Below are positions 1,212 to 64,000 of a DNA stretch of 64,000 nucleotides, in pieces. Below the pieces are notes generated by a model. That model ran no database searches. It saw nothing but the letters and a program-made list of their open reading frames with translations, and was not told the DNA's origin. The translations under genes were made by a program, and so were the position numbers. Location: contig JAWVXD010000001.1 in the NCBI GenBank assembly GCA_033723415.1, positions 352,001 through 416,000 of the forward strand, in the 5' to 3' direction. Source of the stretch: Sulfurospirillaceae bacterium. GTDB lineage: Bacteria; Campylobacterota; Campylobacteria; Campylobacterales; Sulfurospirillaceae. Positions within the stretch are counted from its first letter, which is position 1. Each line of letters begins with the position of its first letter.

Positions 1212-2004
1212 GTAAATCATCTCCTTTTTTTCTTTTTCTACTTTTACTTGTAAGAACAAAATATATAAACAACATGATCATGAACAACGTCATGACTGCA
1301 CCAAATATCTTTTTGGTTTCAAAAACGTATTTGTTGCTTTTTGGATCAAATGAAAAACAAAAAGCTACGGCTCTGGCGATAGTAGGTCTAGCTATGCCTT
1401 TGCTTGCTTCGCCTATGGCCATTTGGAGGTCAAAAGGAAGGTAATCTATACCGTTTAGATATCTAGTTATCTTTCCTTTAGGAGAAAGGATAACAAGACC
1501 TGCGGGATGGATATAATCAATAAAACCTTGTTTGTTTATAATCTTTTTAAAGTTATATCCCAAAGCATTTGTAAGAGCATCAACTGTCTTTTTGTCAGGA
1601 GTAGTTAAAAAACTCCAAGCACTCTTGTTGAAGTCTTTTCTTATCACAGCTGTGTGATTTTTCTTGAACCACATCGCATCTTTTGGACCATCTGTAGTTA
1701 CAAAACTTATTGTTAAAGCTTTATAATCTTTACCTTCTTTTAGGTTTAGTTTATCCAGGGACTTTGTCATTCCATCAATCTGAGGACCACAAATACCGGG
1801 ACAATGAAAATAATTTACGGATATGACCGTAGGTTTATTTTCCATAAACTCACCCAAAGTTTTTTTGACGCCGTGTTCGTCTGTAAAAACCAGATTTAGA
1901 GGCACAAATTTACCTAATCTTTCGTAAGTACCAATTTTCGTATCGCTTCCATATAAAAACATAGAAAAATACACTGATAAGAACAATAATAGAAACTTTT
2001 TCAT
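1204..2004 (-). CDS. SCO/SenC family copper chaperone
   Basis: Signal peptide, CPGIC (CxxxC), conserved His (YIHP), C-terminal TM helix; overlaps start of oxidase subunit I. Confidence 0.9.
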   Translation of the reverse strand: MKKFLLLFLSVYFSMFLYGSDTKIGTYERLGKFVPLNLVFTDEHGVKKTLGEFMENKPTVISVNYFHCPGICGPQIDGMTKSLDKLNLKEGKDYKALTISFVTTDGPKDAMWFKKNHTAVIRKDFNKSAWSFLTTPDKKTVDALTNALGYNFKKIINKQGFIDYIHPAGLVILSPKGKITRYLNGIDYLPFDLQMAIGEASKGIARPTIARAVAFCFSFDPKSNKYVFETKKIFGAVMTLFMIMLFIYFVLTSKSRKRKKGDDLHE

Positions 2005-2449
2005 TCTTCTCCCAATTTCTTAATAGAGTTTTTTAAATATTAAATAAATATTAAATTAACATTTATTTAACACTTTTTTAACAAACAAATTCTATCAAAT
2101 ATTATTTTTCTTAAAGGCGTATAAAAATTTTAATCAAGATTATTTATAAATAAAGTTTTAATATTTTAAAAAGGTATTATAAATATAATATTTATTGTAA
2201 TAACAGATTTTATATAAGAGTAAAAATGTCGTATTTAAGCCTAAAATGGATTTAAGATAAATTATATCTTAATTATAAAAACTATATTAATAAAAATATA
2301 TACAAACTTGAAGTTTTATGATTTTTTCTTATATATTGTGATACAATTATATAAGAGATAGACTAGTCTTATCAGGGCTTTTAGAGAAAAAAATAAAAAA
2401 ATTGACAATATAATTCAAGTATATTATATTCTGTATAAAAGGATACAAA

Positions 2450-3421
2450 ATGAGAATTTACAGACTTTTCCCTTTTGTGGTTTTATTGTGCACTTCAATA
2501 ACCTTATATGCCGTAAATACAGGCAATCCTAAATACTTGGGGACTGTGAGTTTAAATGAGATTATTATGAAACCTAATACTTTGATAGTAAATATAAACA
2601 GCAATGGATGTACTGATAAAAAATCTCTTAAAATTGATGTTCAAAAAGATACTTCTATATCAAATCCTGAGCATTATATATTAAATATCAAAAGAATAAA
2701 ACCTGATCTATGTAACAACTTCATACCAAATGGAAAGACTGTGTTTTTTGACCTAAACAGAGATTTGAATATAACAGGTCAATTTAGCTATTCTGTAGTA
2801 AATGGCATAACCAGTGTAATGCATCTTTCAGAGAATAACGATTCATCTACTGCTTTAAGCAAGAACGTGGCACAAACTAAACCTTTAGTAACAGAAGTTC
2901 AACCTAAATCATTCAAAAAATTCTCAGTCATGCATAATTATTTTACCACAGAGATACCGACATCTTGGAAATTATCGTATGACGTAAACAAAGATCAACA
3001 AAATGGTATTTTTGAAATCAGACTAACTAAATCAAACGAATCAAATACCTCTAATACTACGCCTGAACCTATGATATATGTAGGATTTTATGACTCAAAT
3101 AATACTCAAAAAGAAACTTATGACGTGTTTATAAATGAATACAAAAAATTAGCACAGAAGAGGGCAGGTGATCCAAACTATCATTATGAAGATCCAAAAA
3201 CGATAACTTTAAACGGATTACAGGCTATGCAGTTATCATATGAAGTTTATAAAAATACAGACAAGCTTTTGAATCAATTTTGGATGCAAGCCAACTTTAT
3301 TTTATTGAAGACTCAAGAAGGTTTTTATGTATTGGCGTATAAAAGTCCAAAAGAATTCTATGAGAAATTTTTACCAATATTTAATAAAGTCAAAAATACA
3401 TTTAATCCTGGAATATTTTAA
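2450..3421 (+). CDS. Exported hypothetical protein, possible PsbP-like C-terminal domain
   Basis: 323-aa ORF with signal peptide and AAGGA RBS; C-terminal half has a PsbP/Mog1-like pattern (inference). Confidence 0.6.
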   Translation: MRIYRLFPFVVLLCTSITLYAVNTGNPKYLGTVSLNEIIMKPNTLIVNINSNGCTDKKSLKIDVQKDTSISNPEHYILNIKRIKPDLCNNFIPNGKTVFFDLNRDLNITGQFSYSVVNGITSVMHLSENNDSSTALSKNVAQTKPLVTEVQPKSFKKFSVMHNYFTTEIPTSWKLSYDVNKDQQNGIFEIRLTKSNESNTSNTTPEPMIYVGFYDSNNTQKETYDVFINEYKKLAQKRAGDPNYHYEDPKTITLNGLQAMQLSYEVYKNTDKLLNQFWMQANFILLKTQEGFYVLAYKSPKEFYEKFLPIFNKVKNTFNPGIF

Positions 3422-5786: not shown

Positions 5787-6692
5787 TTATTTTATAGCTT
5801 CCTTTACCGCATTGATATAACTTTTTAAAGATAACTCCACATTTTTATATGCTTTGTCAAAGCCTGTCCCATGATCAACGGAAGTTCTTGTAATACTTTG
5901 ATTTAATGTAACATTGATACTTTCCTCAAAATAAAGTGCTTTCAAAGGGATAAGTCCTTGGTCATGATACATACAGACAAAATATTTATATTTATCTCTA
6001 TTAGGTTTTGTAAACGCGATATCCGGGACAAGGGGTCCTACAAAGAGTTCTTTCCCTAATATCTCATTTGATTTTTTTATAGCCAAACTGATATCTTTTT
6101 CTTCATTTCCTATAACGCCGTTGTCTCCTGCATGAGGGTTCAATCCCAAAACTGCAATCTGATCGGTCTCAATATAAGTTGAGACATCCAACAAGAATTT
6201 GGCTAATTGTTTTGTTTTTATTTTGGAACTCACATCCTTAAGAGGTATGTGATGTGTAAAGAGTAAAACAAACATCTCCTCACAGCCTAGCATCATAATG
6301 GTCTTGCAGCCAAGAAGATCAGATATGGCATCAGTGTGCCCTTTGTATTTGATATCTGCCAGATTCCAAGAAGCTTTATTTATAGGTAGTGTTACAACTG
6401 CTGATACTTTATTGCTTCTTGCCAGTGCAATCGCCGTTACAAATGAATCAAATGACATCTCTCCGGCAGCCTTTGTAGAAATACCTGGTTCTATATCAAA
6501 TATATCACCACATTCTTTCGTTTTAAATTTCTCCGGAACGTCAAGTCCAAGCATTGCCGCAGCCCAATTTAGCATCGTTTGATTGATACAATAAACAGGT
6601 TTACAAATTTTACTGATCTCTTCATGAGCTCTAAGGGCAATTTCAAGACCTATGCCGTTTATGTCTCCGATACTTATGGCAACTTTTTTCAT
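5787..6692 (-). CDS. pdxA: 4-hydroxythreonine-4-phosphate dehydrogenase
   Basis: AISIGDINGIG, GLNPHAG, MYHDQGL, RTSVDHGT; start moved to ATG 6692, which overlaps the pdxJ stop. Confidence 0.95.
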   Translation of the reverse strand: MKKVAISIGDINGIGLEIALRAHEEISKICKPVYCINQTMLNWAAAMLGLDVPEKFKTKECGDIFDIEPGISTKAAGEMSFDSFVTAIALARSNKVSAVVTLPINKASWNLADIKYKGHTDAISDLLGCKTIMMLGCEEMFVLLFTHHIPLKDVSSKIKTKQLAKFLLDVSTYIETDQIAVLGLNPHAGDNGVIGNEEKDISLAIKKSNEILGKELFVGPLVPDIAFTKPNRDKYKYFVCMYHDQGLIPLKALYFEESINVTLNQSITRTSVDHGTGFDKAYKNVELSLKSYINAVKEAIK

Positions 6693-7571: not shown

Positions 7572-8330
7572 ATGAGAAAGATATTTTTGATTTTAGTATT
7601 ATTTATAGGGTTAAATTTATTTTCCAGCGAACTTCAAATAAAAACAAAAGATGGATTTATATTAAAGGGTTGGTTGACTTTTCCGAAAGTTTCAGAAAAA
7701 ACTTATCCTTTGGCAGTTTTTGCTCATGAATTTGGCAGTGACCATAAAATGTGGGCAAATATATCAAAACTTATGCGTAAAAGAGGATATGCTACGTTTG
7801 AGATGGATCTAAGAGGCCATGGAAAATCAATTATGCAAAATGGAAAAGAAAATAAGATAATCAGTTTTAAAACCTTGGACCATCTAGAAGCTTCCGTAAA
7901 ACAGAGTGCTATAAAAGTAGATTTTAAAAAAATTCCAAATGACTTATCTGCATGGATCGATAAATTGTCACAGAATAAGAAATTAAAAACAGAAAACATG
8001 GTGTTTTTCGGTGCGTCTTTAGGTGGTGGAGCAATCATATCAATCTTGCTTGATTATGAACCTAAAGTCGTAGTGCTATTCTCACCTGCAGCTCCAAAGA
8101 CTTATGATGAAACTGCCATGAATGACTCTATTTCAAATAGCGAAGCTAAAATACTGATTTTTTCTTCTAGAGATGATTTTGCCAGGAAAACAGCTATTTA
8201 CTACATGACAAAAGCACTGACACCAACACTTATAGTTCTACCTGGCAGTGGACACGGAAGTGCAACATTTGACCTTGCTATGCCTTTTTTAAAAACTTAT
8301 CTTAATAAATATTTACCAATAGAAAAGTGA
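7572..8330 (+). CDS. Exported alpha/beta hydrolase
   Basis: Signal peptide after AAGGA RBS, DLRGHGKS, GASLGG nucleophile elbow, GHG. Confidence 0.85.
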   Translation: MRKIFLILVLFIGLNLFSSELQIKTKDGFILKGWLTFPKVSEKTYPLAVFAHEFGSDHKMWANISKLMRKRGYATFEMDLRGHGKSIMQNGKENKIISFKTLDHLEASVKQSAIKVDFKKIPNDLSAWIDKLSQNKKLKTENMVFFGASLGGGAIISILLDYEPKVVVLFSPAAPKTYDETAMNDSISNSEAKILIFSSRDDFARKTAIYYMTKALTPTLIVLPGSGHGSATFDLAMPFLKTYLNKYLPIEK

Positions 8331-9229
8331 AGATGATAGGTTGTGACCTTGGATCAAATACGCTAAGAATAGTGGAAATTGACTGTAAAACAAAAAAAAG
8401 AGTTATTGAATTTGAGAAGATAGTAAAAACAGGACAAAATTTAAAAAATAGCGGCAAAATATCGGATGAATCGATCAAAAATATCTTTGATGCTTTAGAA
8501 GAAGCTTCAAGTATTTTTGATTTTTCATCTAAAAAAACTAAATGCGTGACAACAGAAGCAATGAGACTGGCATCAAACTCAGATGAAATTCTAAAGACAA
8601 TAAAGGAAAGATTTAATCTTGATTTTCAAATTATCTGCGGAGACACAGAAGCACAGTACACCTTACAAGGCGTCAAAAACTCGTTGAGACTACTGAATAT
8701 ACCAGATGATGATTTTTGTATGTTTGATTTAGGTGGAGGATCTACTGAGATCATCTATGTGCAAGAAAACAATACATCATATAAAAGCTTCCCTTTTGGT
8801 ATTTTGAAGATTTCTGAACAATATCCTGATTTAGAAAGCCTGCAAAATGGCATTTACGAAGAGATTGAACAGATAAATTACTTTATAAAAGGTCATAATA
8901 AACCTAAAAAACTAATTGCGACTGCAGGAACACCTACTACCGTATGCGCATTTTTACAAGATGTGGATTATAGATCTTATAACCATAACAAAGTATCAGG
9001 TAAAATATTGCATATAAACGATTTTAAAAAAGCATATACCCAAATTTTGGCATTAAGTCTTGAAGAACAAGAGAGGTATTGCGGTACTAACCGAAGTGAA
9101 CTGATCAAGACAGGTATTTTGATAATAATAGGATTAATGGAAAAACTAAAGTTTGAAGAATGCCTAATAGTAGACGATGGACTCAGAGAAGGAGTTGCCC
9201 TTTCATTGTGTAATTTTGGCTTTGTCTAA
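8327..9229 (+). CDS. Ppx/GppA family phosphatase
   Basis: DLGSNT, TEAMR, DLGGGSTE, GLREG. Confidence 0.9.
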   Translation: MKMIGCDLGSNTLRIVEIDCKTKKRVIEFEKIVKTGQNLKNSGKISDESIKNIFDALEEASSIFDFSSKKTKCVTTEAMRLASNSDEILKTIKERFNLDFQIICGDTEAQYTLQGVKNSLRLLNIPDDDFCMFDLGGGSTEIIYVQENNTSYKSFPFGILKISEQYPDLESLQNGIYEEIEQINYFIKGHNKPKKLIATAGTPTTVCAFLQDVDYRSYNHNKVSGKILHINDFKKAYTQILALSLEEQERYCGTNRSELIKTGILIIIGLMEKLKFEECLIVDDGLREGVALSLCNFGFV

Positions 9230-11465: not shown

Positions 11466-12427
11466 TGACACTGAAAGATTTAGCAGATAAATTAGATATT
11501 GCGTATAATGGTCAAGATTTTGAGATAGCATCCTTTGCAACCTTACAAAGTGCGCATTCAAAGAATATCACATTTTTTGATGATGCAAAGTTGCTCGAAG
11601 ATCTAAAGAATACAAAAGCTAAAGCAGTCTTAATAAGTGAAAAATTTGCTTCATTTGTACCTGAAGATACACAAGCTTTGATCTGTGACAATCCGCATCT
11701 CTACATGGCTAAAGCTAGCAAGTATTTTGTAAAGGATTCATTTTCTTTTGGTGAAAATATAGAAATTCATCAAAATACAAGAATCTCACCAAATGTGCAA
11801 ATTGGAAGCAATAGCAAGATAGAAGAGGGTGCAATTATATATCCAAATGTCGTAATAGGATCAAATGTATATATCGGTAAAGACACTCTGATATATCCAA
11901 ATGTCGTAATCTATGCAGATTCCGTTATAGGTTCAAACTGTATATTACAGGCAGGTTCCATCATCGGAAGTGATGGCTTTGGTTATGCTCATACAAGAAA
12001 TGGGGAGCATGTAAAAATTCACCATAGTGGAAATGTTGTAATTGAAGATGATGTTGAAATAGGAGCAAATACAACGATTGATAAAGCAGTATTTGGTTCT
12101 ACCGTGATAAAAAAAGGAACAAAAATCGATAATCTCGTCCAAATTGCTCACAATTGTGAACTAGGAGAATATTGTTTGATAGTATCACAAACAGGAATTT
12201 CCGGCTCATCAAAGCTAGGAAGGAATGTAATCATGGGAGGACAAAGTGCAACTGCAGGTCATCTCTCAATTGGCGATTTTGCAACAATTGCAGCAAGAGG
12301 CGGTGTCACAAAGACAATTGATGGAGGAAAAGTTTATGGCGGATTTCCATTGATGTTACAAAAAGAGTGGCTAAAAAAACAAGCAAAAATAGCAAATTAT
12401 TTTAAAAAAATTAATAAAAGGATTTAA
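11465..12427 (+). CDS. lpxD: UDP-3-O-(3-hydroxymyristoyl)glucosamine N-acyltransferase
   Basis: Hexapeptide repeats, [19 protein letters not shown]. Confidence 0.95.
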
Positions 12428-55504: not shown

Positions 55505-56560
55505 TTAAAACAGATCCGTGGTTTTTTTCAATCTCTCTTGGTCAAAATGCGTATAAATTCTGGATGTATTGATATCTGCATGACCGAGGGATTCTTGAAC
55601 GAGTACCAAATCTCTGTTTTTTTGGTAGAGCAGGGTGGCAAACGTGTGTCTTAGCATATGGCAACCGTTTTTCTCTTTCCTTAAGCCCGCACTCATAAGT
55701 ATCTGCTCAACTAAGCGGCTTAGATAGGCTTGTGTTAATTTTGTGCCCTTTTGATTGCAGAACATCAGCCCGTCTTCACAATTTCTGATCTCAAGCCATG
55801 CAGCCAAGTCCTCTTTGATCACGCGCTCTCTTATCATGACGACTCTGGATTTATTTCCTTTTCCTGTTATCTTTATGATGTAATTATCTTCTTCTTTGAA
55901 AAAGTCCTTGATCTTGACACTGATCGCTTCTCCGACTCTGATGCCTGTATAAAGGATTAGTTTTATGACCAAGCGGTTCCTAGCGCCAAGTTCAGGAGTT
56001 TTGTAATCAAATGCATCGATTGCATTGATAAATCTAGAGGCTTCTTCTTTGTTAAGAAAAGAGGGCAGTTTGACACCGCTTTTCCCGCTCAAACCGCCCC
56101 AATTTTTAAGCTCTATACCATATCTGTAGGCGTTGCCGTTTTCATCTTCATTTTGTTTATCTATATAACCAAAAAAGCCAAGTAGGGCGATACGGTAGTT
56201 TTTTTTACTCGCATCTGACAAACTTGAAGTCTCACTCGCTAAAAAATCACTCAGAAGCTCTTCATCGATCTCTTTCATAGAACCTGCACCAAATCGCATA
56301 AGATACTCATATAGCTTTTCAAGTGGACGGTAATAGACATGAACGCCACTCATACCTATATTTCTCGCTTCTTTTAAAAGATTTGTTAGAGTTTTTATAT
56401 CACTGGTACCTTTTGCTAGATTTTGGATAATGATTGCCAGTTTGTCTTTGTCCGTTACTTGTCGATTTGAAAGAGTCGTAACCTTGTTGCGTATAAATCT
56501 ACTAAGCCAAAAAAGATACGTTTGACTAAAAGTCGACTCAAGATCAAGAGAATACCTCAT
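55505..56560 (-). CDS. xerH: Tyrosine recombinase XerH
   Basis: Catalytic R-K-HxxR-H-Y (GIRVGEA, GKGNK, HMLRH, LGH, SRIYTH); N-terminus LFWLSRFIRNK..LSN typical of XerH; adjacent difH. Confidence 0.92.
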   Translation of the reverse strand: MRYSLDLESTFSQTYLFWLSRFIRNKVTTLSNRQVTDKDKLAIIIQNLAKGTSDIKTLTNLLKEARNIGMSGVHVYYRPLEKLYEYLMRFGAGSMKEIDEELLSDFLASETSSLSDASKKNYRIALLGFFGYIDKQNEDENGNAYRYGIELKNWGGLSGKSGVKLPSFLNKEEASRFINAIDAFDYKTPELGARNRLVIKLILYTGIRVGEAISVKIKDFFKEEDNYIIKITGKGNKSRVVMIRERVIKEDLAAWLEIRNCEDGLMFCNQKGTKLTQAYLSRLVEQILMSAGLRKEKNGCHMLRHTFATLLYQKNRDLVLVQESLGHADINTSRIYTHFDQERLKKTTDLF

Positions 56561-56606
56561 AATGTGCCTTTTTTTGATATTTTCATATTATAGCAAAATT
56601 TAGCTT

Positions 56607-56640
56607 AATTGTATTGGAAACTGTAATTTCCAAACTCTTA
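56607..56640. other. difH chromosome dimer-resolution site; probable left attachment junction of the provirus
   Basis: AATTGTATTGGAAA-CTGTAA-TTTCCAAACTCTTA: inverted arms around a 6-bp spacer, closely matching Campylobacter difH as recalled; about 50 bp upstream of xerH. Confidence 0.85.
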
Positions 56641-56708
56641 TTTGGATTTATTGGCTTGAAACTTAAACGAGTGAGAAATTATGAGTTAAAACTTAAAAAG
56701 AGTATGTC

Positions 56709-57332
56709 ATGATAGACATAAAACTCATTGATAAGTTTAAAAATGGCCGTACAACGGTTGAGAATGATATTTTACTAGATAGTACCTTGACAGCAACTGA
56801 AAAGATAGTCTATATGTACATCGAAATGCTATCGCACAAAGATAACTACTGTTATGCGACAAATATACAGATATCGGATCTTACCGGACAAACAATAGAC
56901 TCATTGAAACAAGCATTTAAAAAACTCAAAAAGAAAAAATACATTGTAGTCGATACGCTACAAACGCGCACACCATACAAGCGCCGTATATTCACGGAAA
57001 CACGTTTTTTACGTGCTTGGAATCAAAACACCCTACCCCGTGACTGTACGGTAAAAGAGCCAATAAAACGGCCTGACGAGCTAGATAGACAAGCAATCAG
57101 CAAGTCATTTCCAAAGTTTAGGAAATTCATAAAATTATATCTTACAGAAAATCAATTTAACATCACTACACCGGGCGAACTTCAAAACAAAACTATCATG
57201 ATCAAAAAGAACGGCTACTACACAAGCATTTGGGATGCGCGAGATCTCACAAAAGATGAAAGCGTAACGTTTGAAATGCTGATGTTCGATAAACGCGAAA
57301 CATTGCTAGATAATTTTTTCAATAAGGAGTGA
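56709..57332 (+). CDS. Winged-helix phage replication initiator-like protein
   Basis: LLDSTLTATEKIVYMYI...YCYATNIQISDLTG...LKQAFKKLKKKKYI resembles HTH_36-type phage replication N-termini. Confidence 0.65.
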   Translation: MIDIKLIDKFKNGRTTVENDILLDSTLTATEKIVYMYIEMLSHKDNYCYATNIQISDLTGQTIDSLKQAFKKLKKKKYIVVDTLQTRTPYKRRIFTETRFLRAWNQNTLPRDCTVKEPIKRPDELDRQAISKSFPKFRKFIKLYLTENQFNITTPGELQNKTIMIKKNGYYTSIWDARDLTKDESVTFEMLMFDKRETLLDNFFNKE

Positions 57333-57520
57333 AAATGCAAATCAAAAAAGGTGATATTATTGTCTATAAAGTCGGTAAGAATACAAAGCAAAGCAAAGTT
57401 AGAAAGATGAACTTTGATAATAGTGCTTCAATTTTTGCAAAAGAAAAGATCATACCTTGGGATAATATTTTAGGCGTATGCTCTACTATAAAGGATCATC
57501 ATGATAATCGAAATAAATGA
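57329..57520 (+). CDS. Phage hypothetical protein
   Basis: 63 aa, AAGGAG RBS, overlaps upstream stop. Confidence 0.6.
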   Translation: MKMQIKKGDIIVYKVGKNTKQSKVRKMNFDNSASIFAKEKIIPWDNILGVCSTIKDHHDNRNK

Positions 57521-57716
57521 GGAAGATTATGACTTTATCATGTATCTTATCAGAGAGGAAATATATGATAAAAAAGACAGTTTAGAGATACTTAAAGGCA
57601 AAGATCATTTTTATGGTAACGAAGATCCATATAGGATAAAGAGGATCAAAGAGTTAAAAAGAGAGATTAGAAAGATTATTGAACTAAGGAGAGCTTTAAA
57701 ACGAGGAATAAAATAG
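57501..57716 (+). CDS. Phage hypothetical protein
   Basis: 71 aa, AAGGA RBS, basic coiled-coil C-terminus. Confidence 0.6.
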   Translation: MIIEINEEDYDFIMYLIREEIYDKKDSLEILKGKDHFYGNEDPYRIKRIKELKREIRKIIELRRALKRGIK

Positions 57717-57726
57717 CTGTTTAACT

Positions 57727-57787
57727 CTCATATAGGGATACCGTAATTTCCCTATATGAGCGTTTTCATGTTACGGAATGAAAGCGC
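57727..57787. promoter_or_regulatory. Twin hairpins with complementary loops between early and late genes
   Basis: CTCATATAGGGA..TCCCTATATGAG (loop contains CCGTAA) abutting GCGTTTTCAT..ATGAAAGCGC (loop contains TTACGG). Confidence 0.55.
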
Positions 57788-57812
57788 CTTTATATCAAAA
57801 TAAAGGCATAAA

Positions 57813-58262
57813 ATGGGAATAACAAATTTTTTCAGCGGTTTATTTAGCAGCGGAGCCGCAAAAGTAGTCGATGCGATCGGCAATGCAGCAGATAAACTCT
57901 TTACAAGCGATGCAGAGCGTTTACAATTCCGTAATGATCTACAAAAAGAGCTAGACGATCTCAAAGTCAAACTCAATGATGCACTTGCGGCATACGACAA
58001 AGAGATCACGACACGCTGGCAAAGCGATAACGAACACATCATCACGCGCTTAGTGCGCCCTCTTTCGTTTATATACGTTCTCGTCATATTTTCATTTATG
58101 GCGCTACTTGACGGAAATATCGGAACATTTCATATCAACACGGCTTATTTGCCTATATTTCAAGGGTTACTTGGAACTATGGTTGTCGCCTACTTTGGCA
58201 GTCGTGGTATCGAAAAAGTATCAAACATAATAAAAAAATCAAATCAAGGAGATAACCAATGA
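57813..58262 (+). CDS. 3TM holin family protein
   Basis: DKLFTSDAER...RWQSD...VRP...YFGSRGIEK pattern of GTA_holin_3TM-like holins. Confidence 0.8.
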   Translation: MGITNFFSGLFSSGAAKVVDAIGNAADKLFTSDAERLQFRNDLQKELDDLKVKLNDALAAYDKEITTRWQSDNEHIITRLVRPLSFIYVLVIFSFMALLDGNIGTFHINTAYLPIFQGLLGTMVVAYFGSRGIEKVSNIIKKSNQGDNQ

Positions 58263-58594
58263 GTACAAAAAAGCAAATAGATCAGATCGAAGAGATAGAA
58301 GATCTACCCGATCAACTTGATCCACCAAATCCAGAGATTGAAAAGGAAAAGCCGGAAGTTGAGATAAAAGAAACTTTGACACCGGATCTCGAAAAAAAGA
58401 TTGATGAGATTGAACATAAATTAGATCAATATCATGTTCAATCTATCAAAAAAGAATTTGAAGATCATTCAAAAGAAAAACTACAAAGATCAAAATCTAA
58501 ATTTATTTGGTTATTTGGTAGTATTTGTGTTGCTAGTATTGGCTTAATACTTATAAAAAACGCTAAAAACAGCGAAACGGAGGCTAATGGATGA
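58259..58594 (+). CDS. Phage membrane-anchored protein
   Basis: Acidic N-terminus, C-terminal TM helix; ATGA overlaps on both sides. Confidence 0.7.
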   Translation: MSTKKQIDQIEEIEDLPDQLDPPNPEIEKEKPEVEIKETLTPDLEKKIDEIEHKLDQYHVQSIKKEFEDHSKEKLQRSKSKFIWLFGSICVASIGLILIKNAKNSETEANG

Positions 58595-59154
58595 GTAAAG
58601 AAGCGGTTGACGGAACGGATAATGGCGTAGAAAGGAATATTCCTTTTGAAGAAATGGGAAACAGTACGGAGGGCATTACCCGTACTGAGTTAATGGAAAA
58701 AACCGGCAAAGAACTAGCAAAAATGGCATTGCCTTATACAACTTGGAAAGAGAGTACATTATCAAAGTTATCTAAGCCAGAACTATGTGATATCATACTA
58801 ACAAAAGGAGCAAATAAAGAGCAGCAAGAGCCGAGAGCTAGAGCAGCAAGAGCCACGAGTGATAGTGAAGCAATTATCGAGACATTTCTTGCTATTGCAG
58901 AGAGTTTTAAGCTTAAAAGAGAAAAAGAGCCTTTAAATGCTACAGCCAAACAGATCTTTAAAAATAATGCCGTTAATTTAGTCGATAAAAAGGTTGAAGA
59001 GGAAACGTTAAGCAGCCACGGTGTAAATGTTACAGTGGCATTTATTGCCGGTACATTTTTAGCTATAGACGGGCTTATAGGCTTAGCAAACATCCCAACA
59101 TTCTTTTCAAAGATAAAGAGCAAACTAAATGTTAATAAAACAGAAGCAAAATAA
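58591..59154 (+). CDS. Phage membrane-anchored protein
   Basis: 187 aa with C-terminal hydrophobic segment, GGAGG RBS; directly upstream of ATPase. Confidence 0.7.
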   Translation: MSKEAVDGTDNGVERNIPFEEMGNSTEGITRTELMEKTGKELAKMALPYTTWKESTLSKLSKPELCDIILTKGANKEQQEPRARAARATSDSEAIIETFLAIAESFKLKREKEPLNATAKQIFKNNAVNLVDKKVEEETLSSHGVNVTVAFIAGTFLAIDGLIGLANIPTFFSKIKSKLNVNKTEAK

Positions 59155-59785
59155 GATAATTACAGTTATCGGACATAAGGGCTATGGAAAAACAGCTTTA
59201 ACAGAAGCCCTTATGCTTATGTATGATAAACCGACAATTATCGCAGATCCACGATTTCAATACTCTACTTTTCAAAAGCGCCGTGTAAGCTTTAGATCTG
59301 TAGGTGATTTTAGAAAGTGGATCTATAACACGGCAAATTTCAAAGATTTTTATAAATACAAACTCGAACTCGTCGTAAATGCTTTTGATGATACATTTGA
59401 AGAGTTAGCACATATTGTGAGACAAATGAGATCTTTGATGTTTGTCGTCGATGAAGTAGATATGTTCTTAGATCCACGGGCTACAAAAAACAACTCCTTG
59501 AACAAAATTATTCAGTATGGTAGACACCACGAGATCGACATCATAACTACTTCTAGGAGACCGGCAAACATCTCGCGTAACTTAACATCTCAAACAGATA
59601 TATTTTATTTCTCTAAGTTACGCGAGCCAACTGATAAACTGTACATAAAACAAGCGATAGGTGCAGAATATGTCAGTACCGTTGAAAACTTAGAGAGATT
59701 TAGCTTTTTAGAGTTTGAAGACGAAGAACACCAAAAGATCATCACTACTTCTGAAAGAGATCTTGAACTATTACAAAGAGGGTGA
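59129..59785 (+). CDS. FtsK/HerA-superfamily genome packaging ATPase (P9/A32-like)
   Basis: Walker A GHKGYGKT, Walker B FVVDEVD, arginine-finger region YGRHHEIDIITTSRRPANI...SQTD; about 220 aa, no TM. Confidence 0.85.
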   Translation: MLIKQKQNKIITVIGHKGYGKTALTEALMLMYDKPTIIADPRFQYSTFQKRRVSFRSVGDFRKWIYNTANFKDFYKYKLELVVNAFDDTFEELAHIVRQMRSLMFVVDEVDMFLDPRATKNNSLNKIIQYGRHHEIDIITTSRRPANISRNLTSQTDIFYFSKLREPTDKLYIKQAIGAEYVSTVENLERFSFLEFEDEEHQKIITTSERDLELLQRG

Positions 59786-59810
59786 GGAAAAATCTTTGAA
59801 AGGAGGAAAA

Positions 59811-59906
59811 ATGCAAGCAAAATTGATGAAAGGCTTTGTCTTAGGTATCACCGTAGTTGTTATAAGTGGCGTTGTGGGTAAATGGATCCCATCCGTAAAA
59901 ATATAA
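59811..59906 (+). CDS. 31-aa phage membrane protein
   Basis: MQAKLMKGFVLGITVVVISGVVGKWIPSVKI preceded by AGGAGG; the track's 59715 start is probably too long. Confidence 0.75.
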   Translation: MQAKLMKGFVLGITVVVISGVVGKWIPSVKI

Positions 59907-59932
59907 AAAAATTTATCATATAAGGAAAAAAT

Positions 59933-60040
59933 ATGAATATCACAAAACTTGATGTTTATTTGGCAGCAGGTATCTTAGTTGGCATTGCAGCCGGGAAAAA
60001 ATTTGTTGATCCGATCTTAGTTTCGGTTTTGGGGGCATAG
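59933..60040 (+). CDS. 35-aa phage membrane protein (not in ORF track)
   Basis: MNITKLDVYLAAGILVGIAAGKKFVDPILVSVLGA preceded by TAAGGA; stop lies 1 nt before capsid gene start. Confidence 0.78.
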   Translation: MNITKLDVYLAAGILVGIAAGKKFVDPILVSVLGA

Positions 60041-60041
60041 T

Positions 60042-61001
60042 ATGGCGCAATCATTAAAAGTAAAAGAAAATTCCGCAACGTGGGCAGCTTCTACTCAATC
60101 CAGGATCCCTCTTAGTAGAAATTATCATGTGGAAAATTACCTTGTGAAAATAAAAGTAACACATGATAACGGGGCAACCCCTGTGTTTTATAATGAGGGC
60201 GTTTTTTCTTTAATTAACAATATACAGTTGATTGGAAATGGCAATGAAAATATTAAACAAATGCCAGCAAACAAATTATATATCGACAGTATTTTAAGAA
60301 GTGGGAAAAATGGCGGTAACTCTCTTGATACTACAGCAAACAAAACCGGACTTACAAGCTATGTTTGGGCCCGTATCAATCTAAGTATGCCAAATTCTGT
60401 TCGACCTTGGGACACTATCCTATGGACAAAACCATTCCAATCTCTCGATCTTATGATTGATTGGGCTTCAAGTGCAAATATCGGATCTAATATTACTGTA
60501 ACAGCAGCAGAAATGACAGTATTTTCAAATCAGTTAATCGGATATAGTAGAGCAAAAGGCGAAGTGATTAAATACTATGAAGAAACAGCACTTAAAGAAG
60601 AAGTGACTGGAACAAATGCTCAATTAACTTTCAATTTACCAGTAAATAAACTTTATAGAGCTATTTCTATAGTATCAACAATTAATGGCTTAAGAGCTGA
60701 TACTGTGATAAACTCTATTAAGCTAAAAAGCGGGCAAACAGTTTTTTGTGATTGGGATGCTGAAGCATTTAACGAACACAATAAAGAAACATATCGTATT
60801 GAATCATCAACAGATTTTAAAGGAATCTATGTAGTTGATTTTGCAGAGCGTGGAAGACTAAGCGATATGCTGAATACAATCGTAGCACAAGGTGGTTACA
60901 ATACTTTAGAACTTGTTTTAAACGTCACAAAACAAACGGGATCAAACTTTGTAGACGTCTATTTTGACACGGTAAAACAGACTACAGCAACGGAGGTTTA
61001 A
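60042..61001 (+). CDS. Putative double-jelly-roll major capsid protein
   Basis: 319 aa, beta-strand-rich two-domain pattern reminiscent of STIV/PM2 capsids; located two small genes after the packaging ATPase. Confidence 0.75.
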   Translation: MAQSLKVKENSATWAASTQSRIPLSRNYHVENYLVKIKVTHDNGATPVFYNEGVFSLINNIQLIGNGNENIKQMPANKLYIDSILRSGKNGGNSLDTTANKTGLTSYVWARINLSMPNSVRPWDTILWTKPFQSLDLMIDWASSANIGSNITVTAAEMTVFSNQLIGYSRAKGEVIKYYEETALKEEVTGTNAQLTFNLPVNKLYRAISIVSTINGLRADTVINSIKLKSGQTVFCDWDAEAFNEHNKETYRIESSTDFKGIYVVDFAERGRLSDMLNTIVAQGGYNTLELVLNVTKQTGSNFVDVYFDTVKQTTATEV

Positions 61002-61002
61002 T

Positions 61003-61308
61003 ATGCCTAATTATAACGGGGATGGCACAAACGGCGGTATTTCCACCGCCTCCACTCCAATTTCAGGAACGGTAAATGGTACTGATTGGTTATCAAATAT
61101 TTTAAAGCCTATTAGTAATGCCGTTGTTACAGTTGCACAAACACAAGCACAAGTTGACGCACTAAAATCACAGACCGCTACACAACAAAATTATCAAAAT
61201 ACACAAAACGCAATTGGATCTAAAAATATCATTGGCGGTGTGGATAACAATATCTTACTTTTGGGTTTAGTTGGTGTAGTCGGAATTTACATGTTTATGA
61301 AAGGGTAA
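61003..61308 (+). CDS. Virion membrane protein
   Basis: G/S/T/Q-rich with C-terminal TM (ILLLGLVGVVGIYMFMK); follows capsid gene. Confidence 0.7.
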   Translation: MPNYNGDGTNGGISTASTPISGTVNGTDWLSNILKPISNAVVTVAQTQAQVDALKSQTATQQNYQNTQNAIGSKNIIGGVDNNILLLGLVGVVGIYMFMKG

Positions 61309-61311
61309 ATT

Positions 61312-61698
61312 ATGGGTTTCTTTGGTGGAAGTGCTAGTAGTAGCGGAATTGTAACAAGTAGCATTAATTTTAACCCGTCAATGCAGTTTGGCACAGATAA
61401 TACAGCAAAGCCCTCTCAATCAGTAAGTCAGACACCCAAATTGACACAAACTACAAAGGATCAAGGGCTAGCAGCCGCCGCAAGTGTTGGGCTTGGTTTT
61501 GGTGGGAGTGGATCTGCAGGGCCGGCAAGTTTGGCAGAAGCTCCTCTGGTTGGATCTGCACAAACTGGAAGCGCTGCACAGCCTTTAAGTACTTTGGCAT
61601 CTAATTACAAAAAATATTTGCCTTTACTTGGCTTAGCCGGAGTTGGTGGATATATGCTAATTGTAAATGATAAGTCTGGAAAAAAGGCTAAAAAATGA
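61312..61698 (+). CDS. Virion membrane protein
   Basis: G/S/A-rich, C-terminal TM then basic tail. Confidence 0.7.
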   Translation: MGFFGGSASSSGIVTSSINFNPSMQFGTDNTAKPSQSVSQTPKLTQTTKDQGLAAAASVGLGFGGSGSAGPASLAEAPLVGSAQTGSAAQPLSTLASNYKKYLPLLGLAGVGGYMLIVNDKSGKKAKK

Positions 61699-62009
61699 GT
61701 TGGTTAAGTAGTCTTTTAGGTGGTGGAGGCAGCACAAGCTCCACTACCTCAAACACAACGGTAAGTGTAAGTCCAACTACAATTATAAATACCGATAAAC
61801 TGGCTCAAGCTATAGCAGACGGAAATGCAACACAAGCACAACTTGCACAAGCAACAATCACAGCACAAGTAGCCGAACAAAACGCAAAATTGCAACAAAA
61901 CGCGCAGATCTTTGATACCTTAAGAGCAGGCGCAAAAAAATATGCTTTTTTAAGTTTGCTAGGCTTTGGAGTTTACAAGATTTTTAAAAACAAAAGAGGT
62001 AAAAAATGA
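61695..62009 (+). CDS. Virion membrane protein
   Basis: S/T-rich then Q/A coiled coil, C-terminal TM and basic tail. Confidence 0.7.
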   Translation: MSWLSSLLGGGGSTSSTTSNTTVSVSPTTIINTDKLAQAIADGNATQAQLAQATITAQVAEQNAKLQQNAQIFDTLRAGAKKYAFLSLLGFGVYKIFKNKRGKK

Positions 62010-62560
62010 ATTACAACGTAATTACAAAAGATATATCTAACGGGCTATCTCTTAGTCAAAGCAATACACTTGGAAAAGGAGATTATATTATCTTAAGATA
62101 TGCGCCGGATCTTGCGAATGTACGAGTGAGATTAAACAGCCCTGATGCTCCTGCAATAAGTATGATACAAGATGACAGCATCAATGCAAAAGGCATAAAT
62201 CTTGTATATATCGAGTGTGACCCAGTAGCAGCAGAAAAGATAATCTTTGCCCAGGGCAATACAGATCTAGACTTTCAAATCAATCCGGCTCCTGCTCTTA
62301 AAACTGTAAATGTAAACGGATCTTTTATGCCGCGTACGGATCAAAAACAAACGATAGCTGCAGGAGCAAATTTTATATTAGACACAACGACACTTAAAGC
62401 GATCAGGTTTCTAGCTACTGATTACGTTGATGTGTCACTCAATGGCAGTGCAATAAACTATCAAATGCTAGAAGATGAGATCTACACGGGTAATATCACG
62501 TCGTTAAAGTTTACAAACAACACGGCTTCAGCCATTGATCTTGTAATATGGGAGATGTAA
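62006..62560 (+). CDS. Putative vertex/penton protein
   Basis: 184 aa, beta-rich, two similar-looking halves, in structural block. Confidence 0.45.
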   Translation: MNYNVITKDISNGLSLSQSNTLGKGDYIILRYAPDLANVRVRLNSPDAPAISMIQDDSINAKGINLVYIECDPVAAEKIIFAQGNTDLDFQINPAPALKTVNVNGSFMPRTDQKQTIAAGANFILDTTTLKAIRFLATDYVDVSLNGSAINYQMLEDEIYTGNITSLKFTNNTASAIDLVIWEM

Positions 62561-62561
62561 A

Positions 62562-62942
62562 ATGTTAGGTATTTCAAGAGCTTTGGTAGAAAAACTTTTC
62601 GCAAAAAAAAGCGACAAAAATCAGTGTACAGCTTGGGTTGTATTTGACGGAACAACAACTCCTCCAACAATAAAAGATAGTTATAATGTTATTTCTGTTA
62701 CTAAAATTGCAGTCGGTGTCTACGATATAAATTTTACAATACCTATGAAAAATATAAACTACCAAACAAGTGGATCTGTAACAGATGATAATTCTTCTAG
62801 TGGGTTTATCTATGAAAGAGGCACTTTTGCACAAAATAGAACCGTTAATAAATGCAGAATTGTAACTATTCAGATATCTGGAGGTAATACAAGTACAGTT
62901 GATCGTTCAGGGATAACATTCAGCGCAATTGGAGGTATCTAA
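62562..62942 (+). CDS. Putative receptor-binding/spike protein with tail-fibre-type domain
   Basis: TAWVVFDG...IKDSYNVISVT...GVYDINFTIPM.N.NY motif common in phage tail-fibre C-terminal domains. Confidence 0.65.
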   Translation: MLGISRALVEKLFAKKSDKNQCTAWVVFDGTTTPPTIKDSYNVISVTKIAVGVYDINFTIPMKNINYQTSGSVTDDNSSSGFIYERGTFAQNRTVNKCRIVTIQISGGNTSTVDRSGITFSAIGGI

Positions 62943-63253
62943 TGGGATATTTTAAAGTAGTTAACGATTATGTTCAAACGTGTAGTAAAAAAATAGATGA
63001 TACTTGGTTTCCAATTACTAGAGATCAAAACGGAAATATCATCGGGCCGAGTGTTCTAGTCACGCAAATTGCAGATGAACAAAAAGCAACTTCAAACGCA
63101 AAAATAATGCAGCAGATAACAGCACTTGAAAGTGAACTGATAAGACCGATGCGAGAGCTTTTAAGCTCAATTGTAACAGACAAAACCTATGCTCAAACAA
63201 AGGTAAATGACATCGAAACAAAAATTGAAGCTTTGAGGGCTCAAATTGTCTAA
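62942..63253 (+). CDS. Putative fibre-associated chaperone-like protein
   Basis: ITALESELIRPMRELL...IETKIEALRAQI helical motif like proteins encoded next to phage fibre genes. Confidence 0.5.
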   Translation: MGYFKVVNDYVQTCSKKIDDTWFPITRDQNGNIIGPSVLVTQIADEQKATSNAKIMQQITALESELIRPMRELLSSIVTDKTYAQTKVNDIETKIEALRAQIV

Positions 63254-63314
63254 GAAAAAAATAATAGCCTATGGCTCTTTTTTGGTGTCATTGGTATATT
63301 TTAGGAGTTTTTTT

Positions 63315-63779
63315 ATGTACGGATTAATTTCAAAAAAACATTTGGACGAAATTATCGTCAATGTAGTTAATACACTAGGTGGAGGTCAAAATGCTATAGA
63401 TCTTTTAAGCGAAACGGCTATGTCGGAGACACACTACGGAGATACACCGGACCTACACTTACACAGCGGTTATGGAATTTTTCAATTTGATAAGCCAGGC
63501 TTTGATGATGTAGTTGCCAGAACACCGCAAAGTACAAAGGATCTCATCAAAAAAGTCTATGACATTGACATCGATCAAGTCAGCATATTGGCGCTGCAAT
63601 GGTCGCCGCTTTTAAGTACGATCTTTGCACGACTTTTTTACATGCTTCGCCCTGGTGCGATCCCTGATACAATTCAAGGACGGGCACAGTATTGGAAACA
63701 GTATTACAACACTTTTGCGGGAGCAGGAACGGTGCAACATTATCTTAATGCAAACCAAACCGAAAGGTTTAACGCATGA
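63315..63779 (+). CDS. Lysozyme-like endolysin/lytic transglycosylase
   Basis: LLSETAMSET catalytic-Glu-like helix, GYGIFQFD, YWKQYYNT.AG.GT; ATG 63315 has AGGAG RBS (alternative TTG at 63246). Confidence 0.7.
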   Translation: MYGLISKKHLDEIIVNVVNTLGGGQNAIDLLSETAMSETHYGDTPDLHLHSGYGIFQFDKPGFDDVVARTPQSTKDLIKKVYDIDIDQVSILALQWSPLLSTIFARLFYMLRPGAIPDTIQGRAQYWKQYYNTFAGAGTVQHYLNANQTERFNA

Positions 63780-64000
63780 CACCAACTTTAAATAATAATT
63801 TAGCGGATATGTTTGTTGCGTCCACACCGGTTTTGCAGACGGCACCGATACAGTCAAGCAATTTAAGTACATTTGATAAGATATTATACGGTTATGATAA
63901 TATGATCTCAAATGCTAGTAATTCAGCAGATCAAACGCTTACAGATCAAGCGATTGCACAAGAAAAATTTAAACAAAATGCATCGAATATGTATACAAAT
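63776..64000 (+). CDS. Phage hypothetical protein, truncated by window end
   Basis: ATGA overlap with lysin stop; open for 75 codons (MTPTLNNNLADMFVAS...NASNMYTN). Confidence 0.7.
   Translation, partial: MTPTLNNNLADMFVASTPVLQTAPIQSSNLSTFDKILYGYDNMISNASNSADQTLTDQAIAQEKFKQNASNMYTN

Follow-up and report, generated by a model that had tools for sequence, protein, structure and literature searches.

Hairpins that hide the Shine-Dalgarno (SD) sequence are known before phage lysis genes, as in lambda S (sdi), and in T4 late genes on early transcripts; we know of no kissing pair of hairpins upstream of either. Tailless double jelly-roll (DJR) phages are abundant, and the timing of their lysis and the upkeep of their lysogeny are poorly known. 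In the plasmid ColIb-P9, according to PMC8383071, translation of repZ is opened by a pseudoknot upstream of the ribosome-binding site (RBS), and an antisense RNA blocks the same site; the I-complex pseudoknot switch is also treated in PMC10724649, which cites Asano and Mizobuchi (1998). The CI RNA of phage P4 pairs with two complementary sites, seqA and seqC, and keeps the prophage quiet (PMC4825925). A precedent for loop pairing in cis is provided by the enterovirus 3' UTR, where the loops of hairpins X and Y kiss over 6 bp (PMC9189406). In Vibrio, tailless DJR prophages of the dif type (IMEX) rely on the Xer of their host at dif and carry a P16/RstR repressor and P15/XafT (PMC12715192), and DJR viruses have been reported from Sulfurimonas (PMC11531552). 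Neither of these two papers mentions "antisense" in its main text.

Gene map of the provirus

The window, that is, the whole stretch of DNA analysed here, comprises 64,000 nucleotides from a Sulfurospirillaceae bacterium. It ends inside a provirus of about 9.2 kb, which covers window positions 56610-64000 and a further 1.85 kb past the window end (locus L001). The left end is a difH site (attL, 56610..56637, plus strand, built as 11 + 6 + 11) adjoining xerH (55505-56560, minus strand; Pfam Phage_int_SAM_6 and Phage_integrase). The right end, past the window, is a second, partly degenerate dif copy (attR, L001 11825-11852). It is the left arm of attR that is degenerate, and integration splits an 80-aa ORF coupled to rep; the related provirus L006 has the same layout.

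The provirus encodes an HTH replication initiator, two small ORFs, a holin-like gene, a P-loop ATPase and a capsid protein. The initiator gene rep (56709..57332, plus strand) matches Pfam HTH_36 and PHROG replication initiation families; its leader, the iteron-like repeats and attR are found at the opposite end of the provirus, 1.5-1.9 kb past the window. The end of the last early ORF (71 aa, 57501..57716, plus strand) overlaps a TAAAAT -10-like box. The first late gene (149 aa, 57813..58262, plus strand) is holin-like by PHROG 3427 (E 8.8e-14), its score against Pfam GTA_holin_3TM being 16.3 bits, under the cut-off of 24.8; it presumably encodes a working holin. Its stop codon overlaps the next start codon, and in the window overlapping junctions continue as far as the gene of the packaging ATPase (59129..59785, plus strand), the type of which is suggested by P-loop families and gene order. 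Overlap or abutment of stop and start codons after the first late gene also occurs in L006 and L008; it is not clear in L007. The product of 60042..61001 (plus strand) is the putative major capsid protein, probably a double jelly-roll similar to PM2 P2. It scores 23.5 bits against Pfam P2_C, just below the cut-off of 25, and its homologues carry PF25513/PF18628 and share the weak PM2 P2_C match; a sequence search of the PDB gave no match. We infer from gene content that the provirus is a PM2-like tailless virus integrated at difH. The names of its close matches suggest a host similar to Sulfurospirillum. No repressor family was matched among its scanned ORFs. The DNA read set of the host gave a single contig with no excision joint and is uninformative on the activity of the provirus.

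Other features of these viruses are as follows. Three iteron-like repeats lie within L001 11454-11529, near the right end of the provirus; such repeats, with inner dyad symmetry, differ from virus to virus (also L006 ~12125-12205 and L013 ~8320-8360). A 30-nt direct repeat (L001 10456-10485 and 10568-10597) is located between the last structural gene and a 132-aa lipoprotein-like ORF, the latter conserved in L006. A rep-like gene beside a difH-like site is also found in L014 and L008, and in L008 a near-perfect 23-bp hairpin (~6183-6235), absent from the window's virus, directly follows rep. In L017 (2350-3851) and L023 (~1500-3288), which are close capsid relatives, a resolvase-like gene and a cysteine-rich replication protein replace the HTH initiator, judging by the ORF text. 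Different small proteins (PHROG 31219, 3427, 2524 or none) fill the holin slot in related viruses (L006 4396-4794; L017 4038-4457; L027 4366-4812; L023 3344-3595). The capsid gene of L008, in genome G024, ends at 279 aa and is followed by short-palindrome repeats and non-viral-looking sequence (L008 9098-10257), so that this provirus is truncated in the capsid gene and may be decaying. Near-identical difH copies with shared downstream sequence are located at contig ends in genome G001 (C156 9616-9634 and C233 5555-5573), perhaps due to a strain mixture or an integration.

Two hairpins with complementary loops

A pair of abutting hairpins had been described, from the DNA letters alone, between the early genes and the holin operon. 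Both parts of this description agree with our results: the stop codon of the 71-aa early ORF lies 10 nt upstream of hairpin 1, the holin-like gene lies downstream, and the twin-hairpin fold at this position has a z-score of -7.20, with none of 200 shuffles equally stable. Hairpin 1 (57727..57760, plus strand) has 12 perfect pairs in the window and a 10-nt loop containing the strand CCGUAAU (DNA CCGTAA(T), 57741..57747, plus strand), which is the candidate for kissing. Hairpin 2 (57760..57787, plus strand) has a stem of 9-10 bp (10 pairs including one G.T) and an 8-nt loop, GTTACGGA (RNA GUUACGGA; 57770..57777, plus strand). The pairing between the two loops covers 7 bp, six of them Watson-Crick and one G.U. 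The sequence-only reading had given TTACGG as the complement of CCGTAA, which is exact, and had counted one base pair fewer in the kiss. Its stem lengths, 12 bp and 10 bp with one G-T, are right for each hairpin taken alone and not for both at full length: G57760 is common to the two, hence only 12 + 9 or 11 + 10 pairs can form together. In the same manner, G57786-C57787 are common to hairpin 2 and to a third hairpin discussed below.

Both strands of the host genome (4.86 Mb) were scanned for abutting hairpins, each of at least -7.5 kcal/mol, with at least six pairs between the loops. Four matches were obtained, namely the element on each strand and two weaker ones, the element being the strongest.

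Homologous copies and covariation

Capsid searches detected the virus in four of the 61 genomes of the host family, the genome of the window included, and further relatives at 7 genome and 25 metagenome loci, some of which are duplicates. In all four host-family proviruses (the window, L006, L007 and L008) the first late gene is immediately preceded by three hairpins. A covariance model trained on the window, L006 and L007 recovers the L008 copy over its full length and in the corresponding position (28.1 bits, rough E 5e-4 in 52 kb). The window and L006 agree at 78 of 82 positions of the element (95%), the highest value among the regions compared, with the rep leader (92%) next; the capsid gene has 66%, rep 74% and the ATPase gene 83%, so that an element of about 90 nt is kept more strictly than the capsid or ATPase genes. 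Identity in the 100-nt bins just upstream of the element is 17-52% in three out of four and 71% in the nearest one. In L006 the holin-like gene is swapped for a different membrane protein and the RNA element is retained; hence the element is not transported with the holin gene.

Hairpin 1 has the same length in the four copies and aligns without gaps, with a stem of 11-12 bp and a loop of 10-12 nt. Its 11 core pairs give 44 cells in the four copies, 43 of which are standard pairs, and in eight of the 11 pairs at least one copy differs from the window at both bases. In L007 and L008 most of the stem sequence has changed, the pairing and the length being kept. Pairs were counted on coordinates, given that the MAFFT alignment (A4) placed L008 one column off.

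The loops are identical in three copies, and in L008 they are CUGAAU and AUUCGG. Compared to the window, the L008 kiss has three pairs unchanged, two double changes and one C-G pair turned into U.G, whereas the seventh pair is lost. The loop complementarity, conservation of which in homologues had been suggested as a check, is thus kept in four copies out of four, in L008 via compensatory changes. The chance of keeping the six core pairs under an equal number of random changes is 0.6% (p 0.006), and the chance of any 6-bp kiss is 1.7% with random changes and 1.9% with shuffled L008 loops. As the other three copies have identical loops, the covariation of the loops comes from L008, and we treat it as support and not as proof. 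Two features of kissing-loop elements are found here, two stable hairpins with conserved covarying stems and, in L008, complementarity kept by compensation over 6 bp. We are fairly confident that the element is a conserved kissing-hairpin RNA structure.

The evidence on the strand is mixed. The U.G wobble pair of the L008 kiss works on the plus strand only, the minus strand giving a C.A mismatch. The plus-strand mismatches in hairpin 1 of L006, the loop-closing pair of L007 and hairpin 2 of L008 would become G.U pairs on the minus strand, which is also the better-folding strand in L006 and L008, by 1.5-1.8 kcal/mol. A signal at the DNA level, recognised by the replication or packaging machinery as a double cruciform in the supercoiled genome or as a fold of single-stranded DNA, would account for the wobble pairs being split between the strands, for the almost equal folding of the two strands of the element, and for the loops forming an inverted repeat, which makes the kiss possible on both strands in three copies. 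Against it are the C.A mismatch in the L008 minus-strand kiss, the location of the iterons and att sites elsewhere, the existence of relatives with the same ATPase and capsid and without the element, and the constant position of the third hairpin over the SD sequence (see below). We consider a DNA signal quite improbable. A replication origin at the hairpins, another early suggestion, is unlikely, the three iteron-like repeats being at the other provirus end.

Distribution of the element

Ten other related viruses in which the region is assembled (L011, L012, L013/L031, L014, L017, L021, L023, L027, L029 and L032) have no element at this place, and the element is therefore dispensable in the wider group. 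Five of the ten have a homologous holin (tblastn). The covariance model (R1) applied to nine of these loci gave at best 23.8 bits, off-position and without the loops. Among 101 relatives it found only the three training copies and a 27-bit repeat without the loops in genome G046; with the stricter filters of that search the genome of L008 was not recovered. The G046 repeat, identical over at least 150 nt at three places (L234-L236), has a hairpin and an AAAGG-ATG end similar to that of L007, and is probably the end of a mobile element. The scan for twin hairpins was not exhaustive, since it missed the L008 copy, and other divergent copies may be missed as well.

The loop-word pattern gave 59 matches in IMG/VR and two in 401 genomes of the phylum, and none of these 61 folds as twin hairpins. 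Comparison of the element with phage and plasmid collections yielded short chance matches only; among the plasmid matches listed, coverage of the element does not exceed 35%. Scanning IMG/VR with the capsid and the ATPase detected no relative. Regions upstream of holin homologues were taken from the best 80 of 385 IMG/VR loci, 69 of them remaining after removal of duplicates and short ones and 67 being usable after exclusion of L121 and L134 at contig edges. A kiss of at least 6 bp was found in none of the 67, one region having a weak 5-bp match (L123), and none of these holin loci matches the capsid or ATPase. Holin homologues elsewhere are thus without the element, which follows the virus and not the holin. 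The capsid and ATPase trees do not resolve the four element-bearing viruses as a clade, and so gain and loss of the element cannot be ordered.

Likeness of hairpin 1 to difH

The centre of hairpin 1 had been reported to match the difH core at 14 of 16 positions. This is correct for the window, and the core of L006 also has 13 matches to the dif-like site of its own host, which is what speaks for the proposal of a secondary XerH site or a folded attP as in CTXphi. In L007 and L008 only 11 and 4 of the 16 core bases match. Taking the whole 28-nt site, the matches are 15, 14, 12 and 5 of 28 (the window, L006, L007 and L008), and the outer arms match at one of 12 positions in all four copies. For the binding of XerH in H. 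pylori the outer arm bases are of importance (PMC5357621), and in the genuine attR 10 of the 11 bases of the right arm are retained. Moreover, hairpin 1 lies 1.1 kb inside the provirus and not at the virus-host junction; the dif copies are the provirus ends. Apart from difH and hairpin 1, the 2.43-Mb genome has three sites that match the difH core with at most two mismatches. The likeness is uncommon in the genome, yet not conserved. Given the decay of the core, the outer arms and the att sites at the ends, a role of the element as a XerH site or attP is hardly credible.

Hairpin 3 and the switch model

A third hairpin, missed in the first reading, is located at 57786..57807 (plus strand) and overlaps hairpin 2 by two bases. 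Its 3' arm is the SD sequence of the holin-like gene (57802-57806, plus strand), which lies in the stem. In all four copies hairpin 3 tracks the SD sequence 6-7 nt before the ATG, including L006, where the downstream gene is different. Three compensatory double changes in L008 leave the SD sequence paired. The competition of hairpins 2 and 3 for the junction bases is also kept in the four copies with different bases.

The consequences of this competition were computed by folding the four copies. The SD sequence is free in 0.2-1.7% of cases, as opposed to 19-36% with hairpin 2 forced to full length; the opening cost from the SD sequence to the ATG is lowered by 1.5-3.3 kcal/mol in the forced state, and the forcing itself costs 1.7-3.5 kcal/mol. 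A full hairpin 2 is a crude proxy for the kissed state, and in three copies a hairpin 3 of 5-7 bp can persist beside it, the SD sequence being mostly paired. With this proxy, weakening of the RBS hairpin in the pseudoknot state, a feature of the ColIb-P9 type, is predicted for all four copies; the computation suggests that the SD sequence opens when hairpin 2 is full.

With somewhat better than even confidence we favour the interpretation of the element as a cis-acting translational switch of the holin-like gene, based on a loop-loop pseudoknot and similar to that of ColIb-P9. It builds on features read from the aligned DNA, namely the three hairpins with their conservation and covariation, the loop complementarity, the pairing of the SD sequence and the overlapping junctions. 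In the OFF state hairpin 3 would sequester the SD sequence. Kissing of loops 1 and 2 over 6-7 bp would hold hairpin 2 at full length; the full hairpin 2 would take the shared junction bases, and the weakened hairpin 3 would allow ribosome loading (ON). The overlapping stop and start codons after the holin-like gene, by which the switch could reach the ATPase, would relay the ON state in that direction. Any binder of loop 2 in place of loop 1 would keep the holin-like gene OFF, and the best candidate for such a competitor is a predicted antisense RNA opposite the rep leader with a loop equal to the 7-mer of loop 1. Energies of the bare loop duplex are -6.9 kcal/mol in the window and -3.3 kcal/mol in L008, and, set against the forcing cost, the kiss could pay for the change. 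The kiss presumably forms in cis. It probably needs a full hairpin 2, which would give the ON polarity; the polarity may as well be reversed, as the junction state with a 1-nt linker may suit a side-by-side kiss better. The idea of a structured RNA switch for late genes operating via a kissing loop, already present among the roles offered from the sequence, is supported by loop complementarity conserved with compensatory changes.

The kiss may be real and its function structural. The hairpins would then be a cap for stability or processing (for example, an exonuclease block at the 5'-end of the late mRNA or the 3'-end of the early mRNA) or a part of a weak terminator or attenuator, and hairpin 3 would be a separate fixed damper. 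The fixed stem lengths would suit such a rigid fold, and hairpin 2 with its tail passes a terminator pattern scan in the window, where the T run after it is interrupted. In L008 the T run is lost and changes together with the SD strand, which weakens the case for a plain terminator. A -10-like box is found 18 nt (the window and L006) or 37 nt (L008) before hairpin 1, and hairpin 1 could therefore be the 5'-end of the late mRNA; however, L007 has no such box in the 70 nt upstream. The overlap of hairpins 2 and 3, present in all four copies with different bases, would be needless for a fixed cap. In our opinion this explanation is unlikely.

The rep leader and a predicted antisense RNA

The rep leader (L001 11585-11705; L006 12275-12394) has convergent -10 boxes: in both viruses a sense -10 box precedes it and a perfect TATAAT stands behind it on the minus strand. 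Over L001 11585-11687 the leader is identical in L006 at 95 of 103 positions. It contains the only other TTACGG on the plus strand of the provirus (L001 11670). This word lies in a hairpin loop, the hairpin masking the SD sequence of a short ORF; in the circular form this ORF has 80 aa, and its stop codon overlaps the rep start. The loop of this RBS hairpin (L001 11669-11675) is the exact complement of loop 1. The predicted minus-strand RNA of about 90 nt forms two hairpins with interior loops, the first loop being CCGUAAU, the same 7 nt as the kissing strand of loop 1. Together with its 5' neighbour, this loop pairs with loop 2 over 8 positions (counted by eye), one more than loop 1 does. The few differences between the leaders of the window's virus and L006 are compatible with the predicted antisense fold, and an antisense RNA with the matching loop is predicted in both viruses with an assembled leader, the two not being independent.

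From its frequency in the genome, 0.007 occurrences of the 7-mer would be expected in the leader and 0.6 anywhere in the provirus; among 1932 long ORFs a single one carries it no more than 25 nt from the start. On the other hand, the match was found by browsing, and two of the 7-mer bases belong to the SD sequence. The leaders of the G001 and G024 viruses are not in the assemblies, one contig ending at the iterons and the other provirus being cut in the capsid gene, and no further leader copies were found in IMG/VR, plasmids and 401 genomes of the order. Long duplexes between the leader and the element were discarded on account of their many large loops, and so was an antisense promoter just behind the element, which is not conserved.

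The predicted antisense RNA may exist and compete for loop 2. A bolder extension, which we offer tentatively and regard as possible rather than probable, is that this RNA of about 90 nt from the right end of the prophage kisses both the RBS loop of the rep leader and loop 2 before the holin-like gene, and thereby gates replication and lysis. Bound to the rep leader it would switch replication off, and in trans on loop 2 it would keep the late genes off. Hairpin 1 would be a built-in mimic of the antisense loop that wins in cis as late transcripts outnumber the antisense RNA; its win would form the loop-loop pseudoknot and open the RBS of the holin-like gene.

The same matches may be read without involving the holin. 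The loops could act on replication, loop 2 being a decoy for the rep antisense RNA, or loop 1 a second antisense loop. The decoy would mean positive feedback towards lytic replication, loop 1 acting on the RBS of the rep leader would mean negative feedback, and the cis kiss, in which both loops are masked, would set the threshold. The complementarity of loop 1 to the leader RBS loop, the seven bases shared by loop 2 with the latter, the rarity of the 7-mer near starts and the high conservation of both element and leader are consistent with this. Nevertheless, the browsed match concerns two closely related viruses only, leaders are missing from two assemblies with no further copy found, and hairpin 3 is left unexplained. 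We assign this reading a low probability. We assign an equally low one to the possibility that loop 2 and the leader RBS loop are CsrA sites and that loop 1 masks the site in loop 2, which would explain the shared word ACGGA with no antisense link. The CsrA consensus is ANGGA in a hairpin loop. All four host genomes have csrA, and ACGGA is present in loop 2 of three copies and also overlaps the leader SD sequence; yet loop 2 of L008 has no GGA, and the kiss is kept there. A GGA conserved in the loop, expected of a CsrA site, is thus seen in three copies of four.

Leaders with other loops, found in Sulfurimonas-type relatives upstream of rep (L012 1092-1243 and 10185-10329; L021 813-986; L031 7332-7509), all four have a sense extended -10 box and two abutting hairpins, and a perfect extended -10 box on the opposite strand 144-177 bp downstream. 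The 6-nt hairpin loops are identical within a leader and differ between leaders (CGCCAA, CTGCAA, CGGCAA and TTGCAG, the last being CTGCAA flipped), and L012 carries two leader variants on one contig. These leaders look like plasmid-type antisense copy control with incompatibility variants. As all four have the same convergent-promoter layout, antisense control of rep seems usual in the group.

Comparison with known systems

A search of Rfam with positions 56400-64000 (E up to 5) gave one chance match elsewhere in this region, CRISPR-DR58 with 20.6 bits, and no description of such an element was found in the main text of open-access papers. If the switch model is true, the element is a cis-regulatory RNA uncatalogued in Rfam and a compact natural kissing-loop switch, the L008 loops being natural compensatory mutants that ease its testing; it is possibly also an RNA-only link between replication control and lysis. 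If the antisense extension is true as well, a repressor-free tailless phage would run its life cycle on one 7-nt RNA address, with plasmid-type copy control and the lysis decision joined by loop mimicry.

As a prophage, the virus is similar to the Vibrio IMEX in being a tailless DJR prophage that exploits host Xer at dif. It differs in using XerH and difH and in having no match to a repressor family among the scanned ORFs. As in lambda S and the T4 late genes, a hairpin covers the RBS of a putative lysis gene that follows early genes. The enterovirus oriR X-Y pair likewise consists of two hairpins of one short element with loops paired over 6 bp; that element, however, is a replication origin at the 3'-end of an RNA virus with no SD hairpin, and we claim no sequence relation. 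With phage P4 the virus would share silencing of the prophage by an RNA instead of a protein repressor, acting via two target sites. In P4, CI is processed from the very transcript under its control and brings about termination; in the present virus an RNA from the opposite strand would act on translation, and the target has a built-in loop mimic.

The likeness to the IncI plasmid ColIb-P9 with its Inc RNA and RNAI lies in the proposed loop pairing in cis upstream of an RBS and in the predicted antisense competitor. The rep leader of the virus, with the 80-aa ORF overlapping the rep start and the convergent -10 box, is similar to those of plasmids too. ColIb-P9 uses a linear segment near its RBS as the cis partner, the element the loop of a second hairpin. 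The gene under control is holin-like instead of rep, and a second target of the antisense RNA, reached in trans, would lie about 1.3 kb away on the circular genome. The Inc/RNAI family has the loop UUGGCG, unlike loop 2 of the element, GUUACGGA. The element would work like the ColIb-P9 switch and is not a member of that family, differing from it in sequence, in the gene controlled and in pairing loop to loop.
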